From: a virus
Taxonomy: Monodnaviria > Loebvirae > Hofneiviricota > Faserviricetes > Tubulavirales > Inoviridae
DNA length: 8,395 nt
IMG/VR virus record: IMGVR_UViG_2537562014_000001
Strand: one strand, 5' to 3'
The notes below the pieces were generated by a model, which was given only the letters and a program-made list of their open reading frames with translations, was not told the DNA's origin and ran no database searches. Positions within the stretch are counted from its first letter, which is position 1. The number at the start of each line of letters is the position of its first letter. The position numbers were made by a program, and so were the translations under genes. Of the stretch, positions 6,874 to 7,234 are shown one piece after another.

Positions 6874-7027
6874 TTCCCCTCCCCAGAAGCTTTAATGAGA
6901 AAACGGTGTGCAAATGTGCAACATTGCAAAAATAATACACAAAAAAACACAATGCACAAGTGCAAGTGTGCACAAATGCAATTTTGCTAAGTTGCATTAA
7001 ACTAAACAAAAATCAAGAGGGTGAAAA
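6874..7027. promoter_or_regulatory. Divergent intergenic control region between rep (-) and regulator (+) with clustered TGCA-core repeats
   Basis: 154-bp AT-rich spacer containing GTGTGCAAATG (~6907) and GTGTGCACAAATG (~6967), several GTGCAA / TGCACAA copies and small palindromes (TTGCAA, GTGCAC). Candidate operator array and divergent promoters; the promoter hexamers were not confidently identified. Confidence 0.4.
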
Positions 7028-7234
7028 ATGAGCAGAAAAAGTATTGGTATAAGCAACGAGAGATACCTGAGAATAGAACGAGCAGCTGTAGACATCACAG
7101 CAAAAACAGGAAAAGTCACAAAATGGTCAGAGATTGTAAATTATCTGATAGACCAATATTTGAACGATGCAAAGCAAGATATGATTTCAAAGAATGAAAT
7201 CACACAAAAAAATAATAATCATCAGACAATATGA
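7028..7234 (+). CDS. Small DNA-binding regulator, ribbon-helix-helix-like, 68 aa (candidate phage repressor)
   Basis: RBS AGAGGG 7 nt upstream. N-terminal alternating segment SIGISNE followed by two predicted helices (RYLRIERAAVDI...; TKWSEIVNYLIDQYLN) fits the RHH (Arc/CopG-like) pattern. Divergent from rep across the repeat-rich spacer, the same architecture as the rstR/rstA switch of CTXphi-type phages. Confidence 0.45.
   Translation: MSRKSIGISNERYLRIERAAVDITAKTGKVTKWSEIVNYLIDQYLNDAKQDMISKNEITQKNNNHQTI

Follow-up and report, generated by a model that had tools for sequence, protein, structure and literature searches.

How does a filamentous phage that has settled in a bacterial chromosome keep its replication gene quiet, and does the DNA upstream of that gene hold the switch? 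The question is raised by a stretch of 8,395 nucleotides (nt) of inovirus DNA (IMG/VR record IMGVR_UViG_2537562014_000001), here called the window, in which the replication gene rep (5032–6873, minus strand) is separated by exactly 154 base pairs (bp) from a small gene (7028–7234, plus strand) that points the other way. A sequence-only reading of the window had proposed that the 68-amino-acid (aa) product of the small gene has a ribbon-helix-helix (RHH)-like pattern and acts on TGCA repeats in the spacer as the repressor of a lysogeny-type switch, and that a TolA-like gene downstream was acquired with it as one cassette. Our analysis makes it probable that the small protein and the boxes in the spacer are the phage's immunity switch, in which a type-specific RHH repressor would occupy ParG- and MetJ-like box arrays over divergent promoters; the single cassette, in contrast, does not hold up.

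A type-specific repressor divergent from rep is already known in integrative filamentous phages: each rstR allele of CTXphi silences only its cognate promoter in the ig-2 spacer, and heterotypic phages can co-reside (PMC11509585). What is apparently new is the RHH nature of the present class of RstR, the 8-bp grammar of its boxes and the covariation of box and β-strand; in the literature that we searched, no paper linked rstR with a ribbon-helix-helix.

The control region and its phased boxes

The presumed target of the switch, rep, encodes a 613-aa P2 gpA-type nicking/replication endonuclease (Pfam Phage_GPA, 5.3e-48; phrog_91 'nicking at origin of replication', 1.6e-121), and its RefSeq relatives carry the name 'replication endonuclease'. 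Its ATG lies at 6873 with a strong GGAGG immediately upstream, and the small gene, which we annotate as a putative RHH-type, RstR-like repressor, has a GAGGG ribosome-binding site at 7017–7021. The divergent control region between them (6874–7027), the equivalent of ig-2, thus has the layout that had been described from the sequence, and the low G+C content of the segment is also as described (29–34% versus about 52% in rep).

Within this spacer TGCA occurs eight times, against 0.7 expected per 154 bp from the window-wide density, and this is the densest TGCA cluster anywhere in the window. Together with one degenerate TGCT, the repeats form nine (G/T)TGCA(A/C) boxes in two clusters, each in exact 8-bp register. 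Predicted operator cluster 1 (6907–6930) holds three boxes, with TGCA at 6909, 6917 and 6925 and cores GTGCAA, GTGCAA and TTGCAA; predicted operator cluster 2 (6951–6998) holds six, at 6953, 6961, 6969, 6977, 6985 (the TGCT) and 6993. The six-base cores are perfect or near palindromes (TTGCAA at 6924, GTGCAC at 6968, GTGCAA), and the short palindromes noticed earlier in the spacer turn out to be these cores themselves. In 20,000 dinucleotide-preserving shuffles the mean number of TGCA was 3.3 and 18 shuffles reached eight; the phasing is far more exceptional, with five TGCA pairs exactly 8 bp apart where the shuffles gave a mean of 0.06 and a maximum of 3, so that none of the 20,000 reached five. 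The earlier description of a spacer packed with GTGCAA/TGCACAA repeats is therefore confirmed and made more precise.

A relaxed consensus scan proposes a rep promoter on the minus strand (6932–6959), with a −35 TTGTGC (6959–6954), a 16-bp spacer and a −10 TATTAT (6937–6932), and a promoter for the small gene on the plus strand (6976–7003), with a −35 ATGCAA (6976–6981), a 16-bp spacer and a −10 TAAACT (6998–7003). Both positions are predictions. The opposite strand of the spacer in a Photorhabdus relative offers TTGCGT-17-TATGTT at a similar place, as a possible counterpart of the rep promoter, and the −10 of the small gene aligns with TATAAT in Photorhabdus and TACAAT in Providencia, right after a conserved TTGCAT box. 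Relative to these elements, cluster 1 would cover about +1 to +17 of the rep promoter, and cluster 2 would span the rep −35 together with the −35/−10 region of the small gene's own promoter. From these positions we predict that the protein represses rep and regulates itself.

The small protein could instead bind the boxes and serve mainly as an activator or a bidirectional switch factor, for example one that turns on rep or the cargo gene downstream. The placement of the boxes relative to promoters is itself a prediction, and some RHH proteins, such as AmrZ, both activate and repress (PMC3325190). However, a cluster downstream of the predicted rep −10 and another over both −35 regions are geometries of repression, and by analogy the RstR alleles of CTXphi all repress their cognate promoter (PMC11509585). 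We therefore regard a primarily activating role as unlikely.

The small protein, its family and its boxes

The small open reading frame (ORF) is, by the pattern of its substitutions, a real gene under purifying selection: an 85%-identical E. coli relative (L002) differs at 16 nucleotides, 14 of them in third positions, and only one residue is altered. Most relatives are 62 aa long and the 68 aa found in the window are a local variant, which corrects the earlier description. The difference comes from a change in the length of an A-run at about 7207–7216, which gives the tail ...KNNNHQTI in place of the common ...KK and affects only the low-confidence C-terminus.

Homologues of the protein stand in the position of rstR. 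A tblastn search of deposited phage genomes found them in CTXphi/RS1 records, divergent from rstA and labelled 'environmental RstR; transcriptional repressor' (GQ466608 and GQ466611; 47% identity, E 1e-8), a name that reflects annotation and not an assay. Others are present in the Vibrio anguillarum phages VAI1 and VAI2 ('RstR-like') and in uncultured inoviruses. Across the environmental RstR and the VAI1 and VAI2 genes, identity is 41–47% over about 51–57 residues. The protein matches phrog_2503 (E 4.4e-29; 1.9e-26 for a relative with GTTAAC boxes), which has no function label in PHROG and whose members are 'hypothetical protein' in RefSeq. The family is compact, as an exhaustive profile search yielded only 69 cluster representatives, nearly all of 50–100 residues. 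In most relatives with flanking DNA, CTXphi and VAI2 among them, the small gene diverges from the replication initiator, and it does so beside three unrelated Rep families (GPA, G2P/Phage_CRI and Rep_trans).

The classical 111-aa RstR, in contrast, shows no detectable similarity to the small protein. The CTXphi RstR proteins studied biochemically are helix-turn-helix proteins. Because the classical allele and the small protein lack detectable similarity, the RstR 'alleles' apparently belong to two or more unrelated families of proteins. Published rstR-6 primers encode MKKKYTSLRVS... and ...NTQKTDLKR, which resemble members of the present family and are a hint only; the phage collection yielded no rstR-6 record. 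On this evidence the small protein most likely corresponds to the RstR of CTXphi-type integrative filamentous phages in function and, where one allele class is concerned, in descent as well. The resemblance extends to the whole arrangement: the environmental rstR of CTXphi and the regulators of VAI1 and VAI2 are likewise small genes divergent from a replication initiator in a dif-integrating inovirus, with 8-bp-phased boxes of a GCATGC type in the spacer. The present system differs in having a TGCA core with other β-strand residues, a GPA-type Rep where CTXphi has Rep_trans, E. coli as host and no evident LexA site.

An intact, unannotated member of the family (MATPKRTTMAIVAERKLKLERLAIDASHTAGRAITWTDIVNHLIDNY...) also lies at 1486–1677 of coliphage If1 (L053, NC_001954), in what is annotated as the 'major intergenic region'. 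The ORF directly before it resembles, by eye, a remnant of an IS200-type transposase. The If1 gene may be a relic of the switch of a temperate ancestor.

Several lines of evidence make an RHH fold likely for this family. An AlphaFold (AF2) monomer model from a 61-sequence alignment (mean predicted local distance difference test score, pLDDT, 93.5) has an extended segment at residues 1–9 and helices at 10–27 and 33–65 with a short turn between them, and in structural comparison the model resembles solved RHH chains. The family alignment keeps I, V or L at every other position of the strand and has a conserved T-G turn. An hhalign comparison of the family with ParG gave 74% probability in register from the β-strand through helix B, and four of 59 family members matched Pfam ParG weakly (best E 0.019); single Arc and CopG sequences gave no hhalign match. 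The RHH-like pattern of the sequence-only reading agrees with the strand-helix-helix model and the weak matches to ParG; no Pfam or NCBIfam profile matched above threshold.

The boxes are a feature of the family as well. We examined the DNA upstream of 40-odd loci that encode family members, most of them on viral contigs (a locus search with a narrower alignment gave eight genomic loci), and summed periodicity over the 26 that are non-redundant. Self-matches of 4-mers peaked at lag 8 (161) and lag 16 (114), where the other lags from 3 to 15 gave 18–40. Judged by these summed peaks, the 8-bp-phased array is a property of the family regardless of motif.

The motif itself changes with the N-terminal β-strand. 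Proteins with RKSIGIS, or N or T in the last position, have GTGCAA, TTGCAA or GTGCAC boxes in E. coli, Photorhabdus and Providencia; RKAIAIT goes with GTTAAC, RKHIAVT with TTTAAA, RKQIAFT with GTAAAC/GTCGAC, RTTMAIT with GCATGC and RTTISI with GAATTC/GAATAC, and RKNLGVP of the Pasteurellaceae goes with TCAC/GTGAGC in direct and inverted order. The inward I/V/L positions of the strand are constant and the outward ones vary with the core of the box, as an RHH ribbon predicts. In RKSIG-type members from E. coli, Photorhabdus and Providencia and in uncultured viral relatives, the TGCA columns do not change at all, whereas the bases that separate the boxes vary.

These observations suggest how the switch might work. 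In each dimer of the small protein, the paired N-terminal β-strands (R3-K4-S5-I6-G7-I8-S9) would enter the major groove of a palindromic (G/T)TGCA(A/C) box, presumably with one dimer per box, and the 8-bp recurrence would bring adjacent dimers into contact so that they coat the DNA cooperatively, as ParG and MetJ do. If three boxes cover the start of the rep transcript and six cover both the rep −35 and the promoter of the repressor gene, filling them would silence rep together with phage replication and the phage genes further downstream, and the repressor would limit its own expression. The dif-integrated prophage would be kept quiet, and the lysogen would be immune to phages of the same box type and not to heterotypic ones. 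In the lysogen, transcription from the repressor promoter would probably extend into the cargo gene downstream. We infer that one dimer binds per box, that the protein represses and does not activate, that it confers immunity, where the promoters lie and that the cargo gene is co-transcribed.

The closest parallels to such coating are found among plasmid and metabolic regulators. RHH dimers of MetJ (8-bp metboxes) and of omega from pSM19035 (7-bp heptads in direct or inverted order) bind tandem short repeats cooperatively; neither has a detectable sequence relationship to the small protein, MetJ needs a co-repressor, and the omega period is 7 bp. ParG of plasmid TP228 is nearer, as the closest sequence link to a solved RHH protein. 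It binds 4-bp ACTC boxes with 4-bp spacers, hence an 8-bp period, in arrays of 8–12, with one dimer per box and cooperative coating, and represses its own operon (PMC3130281). The short-box arrays at OF and parH thus share their period with those in the window; ParG differs in its flexible 30-residue tail, its non-palindromic ACTC boxes and its work with the ParF ATPase, and no partition partner is present here.

This likeness raises the possibility of a ParG-like role for the small protein in centromere binding or nucleoid organisation, in which the arrays would help to maintain or segregate the replicative form and would not serve immunity. Its nearest relative with a structure is indeed a partition protein, with sites of the same 4+4 bp architecture (PMC3130281), and YpfPhi is an unstable episome in many lineages (PMC4266046). 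However, an ATPase of the ParA/ParF type is missing both from the window and from the annotation of related E. coli prophages, the arrays overlap the divergent promoter region and do not form a separate site, the homologues occupy the rstR slot of CTXphi and are named repressors, and ParG itself also acts as a transcriptional repressor at OF. A partition role is accordingly quite improbable, and an immunity repressor remains the reading that we favor.

Exchange of the module and the cargo gene

Comparison with near-identical prophages shows what has moved. The window is 95.6% identical over 522–6873 to a prophage of E. coli Sx181-0-1 (L003), the similarity breaks exactly at the rep ATG, and it resumes at 7671. 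Between these breakpoints L003 has a 60-aa homologue of the small protein (48% identical) and GTTAAC boxes in place of TGCA boxes, and the segment swapped in this pair comprises regulator, spacer and cargo gene. Another prophage, L004, matches the window at 95.6% identity, spacer included. The same Rep (WP_097430060.1) accompanies the GTTAAC module in L003 and a TGCA-type regulator (WP_024172413.1) in L004; because an identical Rep is paired with different types of box and repressor, the boxes do not follow Rep. These comparisons suggest that repressor and operators behave as an exchangeable, type-specific module, like rstR and ig-2 of CTXphi, where repressor and spacer are exchanged as a unit between near-identical phages and form the basis of heteroimmunity (PMC11509585).

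The exchange bears directly on whether the boxes are iterons or origin elements read by the Rep endonuclease, with the small protein incidental. The array does directly adjoin rep. Origins of filamentous phages lie in intergenic regions and repeats beside rep genes are often iterons, which counts in favor of such a role. Yet one and the same Rep coexists with two kinds of regulatory module, the type of box tracks the β-strand of the small protein and not Rep, and the small gene with 8-bp boxes is found beside three unrelated Rep families. We consider Rep iterons very improbable and reject them on the ground that the same Rep occurs with different boxes. Lastly, that the repeats are chance low complexity or sites for host factors (H-NS, or the SlyA/RovA type) in an AT-rich acquired segment, with the ORF unrelated, is scarcely credible and a chance origin is rejected: the segment is low in G+C and RovA binds the YpfPhi rep promoter region (PMC4266046), but the phasing was never reached by shuffling, the boxes are conserved across genera while their flanks drift, and the core of the box changes with the phage protein inside one host species. 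Host factors may act in addition to the phage protein.

Other points weigh against a type-specific RHH repressor acting on arrays of this kind, and temper our confidence in it. Neither Pfam nor NCBIfam gave anything significant for the small protein, and a hidden Markov model (HMM) search of PDB with an alignment of close homologues gave no usable match; with the family HMM against all PDB sequences, TTHA0139 (E 0.069) and the RHH protein ParG (E 0.15) rank first, with weak E-values. Foldseek of the first monomer model against PDB returned noise only (E>1) and is uninformative, the protein being too small and its fold complete only in the dimer. The RHH assignment is therefore a chain of individually weak links, and a monomer model cannot display the dimeric ribbon. 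Periodicity is weak (z<1.5) at five loci (L009, L013, L014, L046 and L047), the boxes of the Pasteurellaceae are non-palindromic, and overall divergence is a partial confounder of the covariation seen among distant relatives. In the spacer, a stricter promoter scan found no site and the predicted hexamers are poor, with three of six matches in each −35. An SOS box or another route of induction is not apparent, and the rstR alleles tested in PMC11509585 are not shown to include a member of this family.

The gene downstream of the repressor has a history of its own. It encodes a secreted protein with a TolA C-terminal domain (7278–7643, plus strand; Pfam TolA 4.5e-12, NCBIfam TolA 5.4e-17) whose N-terminus is signal-peptide-like, and it begins 43 bp after the repressor gene in the same orientation. 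A weak AU hairpin is all that lies in the gap; no terminator was found between 7234 and 7278, and the first terminator-like structure is a stem at 7896–7931. Given this orientation, the short gap, the weak hairpin and the distant stem, it is plausible that the cargo gene is co-transcribed with the repressor; it does not belong to the switch itself.

The slot that it occupies is hypervariable and reassorts independently of repressor type, with a TolA-domain gene, a DUF2726 gene or a 51-aa membrane-like ORF. In L016 (2690–3400) a DUF2726 gene comes after an identical repressor, in L002 (10504–10750) the repressor has no cargo gene and just the 51-aa ORF, and in L003 (10593–11159) a DUF2726 gene follows the GTTAAC-type repressor. 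These combinations contradict the proposal that repressor and TolA-like gene were acquired as one cassette; because the cargo reassorts independently, repressor/operator and cargo are better seen as separate modules. The proposed repressor/operator switch itself is supported by the homology to RstR, the RHH matches, the covariation of box and strand and the swap at the rep ATG. A TolA-domain gene accompanies this module in only four of 5,426 complete E. coli genomes. Domain III of TolA is the co-receptor for the pIII of filamentous phages, and it is reasonable to suppose that a secreted TolA-domain protein might serve as an exclusion decoy for incoming pIII.

The prophage and what its probable switch may mean

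The element that carries this switch is, on the evidence of its gene content and chromosomal setting, a dif-integrated inovirus of E. coli of the CUS-1/YpfPhi kind (compare PMC4266046), because it has an inovirus gene train, chromosomal copies beside hipBA and a hairpin with dif-like arms. By ORF list, Pfam and PHROG profiles the train is complete and on the minus strand of the window: after rep come a G5P-like gene (4414–4839), small coat genes listed between it and pIII (2451–3776), a pVI-like gene (2089–2448), Zot/pI (825–2081) and the truncated start of a pIV/GspD-type secretin (465–815). Near-identical DNA is present in a few complete E. coli chromosomes, each time beside hipBA in the terminus region and often in tandem, where the genes are annotated as replication endonuclease, hypothetical protein and TolA C-terminal domain protein. 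YpfPhi and CUS-1 share dif integration, the order rep-ssb-coat-pIII-pVI-Zot-secretin and variable ORFs at the att-adjacent end, and their variable cargo slot has been noted (PMC4266046); they carry other ORFs there in place of the TolA-domain gene. In YpfPhi, YPO2273 lies at the rstR position and was described as an RstR homologue with an untested role (PMC4266046), and the comparison drawn here follows that published description.

At the other end of the window, positions 1–521 are the istB end of an IS100 (IS21-family) element, which abuts and cuts the secretin gene; the remaining 116-aa ORF is the N-terminus of a secretin that is intact in relatives. With its secretin disrupted, this copy of the prophage probably cannot extrude virions.

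Downstream of the cargo gene, a 106-nt hairpin (7860–7965, plus strand) folds as RNA at −67.7 kcal/mol (z −11.2), and its inner GC stem with a U-run (7896–7931, −38 kcal/mol) is the terminator-like structure mentioned above; an Rfam scan of the window gave no match. The outer arms are dif-like (the reverse complement of 7945–7960 is GTGCGCATAATGTGTT), and the hairpin is kept in L002, L003 and L004, beside the hipBA/dif region. It looks like the folded single-strand attP of CTXphi-type phages, which would be integrated by XerCD. A unit of about 115 bp occurs twice in the window (7960–8072 and 8271–8377, 84–90% identical), and in related prophages the stretch from the att site to the secretin gene holds several copies like it, with at least three in L003 (1896–2589); the unit is possibly a replication origin or packaging region. 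In E. coli UTAK-18 (L001, 1–21400) there is a tandem arrangement in which a rep(GPA)-repressor-TolA segment takes turns with another inovirus, one equipped with a phage/plasmid Rep of its own and a helix-turn-helix regulator. Structural genes are missing from the GPA-rep segment there, and in this it is reminiscent of the RS1 satellite of CTXphi.

What would such a switch mean beyond this element? We put it at slightly better than an even chance that the small proteins form a pan-inovirus RHH immunity family in the Enterobacterales, Pasteurellaceae and Vibrionaceae, with a relic in If1, that is unrelated to the classical helix-turn-helix RstR and in which about three outward β-strand residues read a palindromic core every 8 bp. 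If this is true, at least seven natural pairs of protein and box would amount to an RHH-DNA recognition code and an orthogonal repressor toolkit, and the 'rstR alleles' of CTXphi would be non-homologous replacements and not alleles. Matched pairs of β-strand and box could be used to study or engineer RHH specificity, and the phrog_2503 family could receive a name in genome annotation. Part of the rstR allele diversity of cholera phages is indicated to be an RHH fold with a simple, regular operator grammar. For the prophages themselves, the switch offers a testable model of how those of the CUS-1/YpfPhi type may be silenced in E. coli and Yersinia, and of how related phages may come to reside together in one host.

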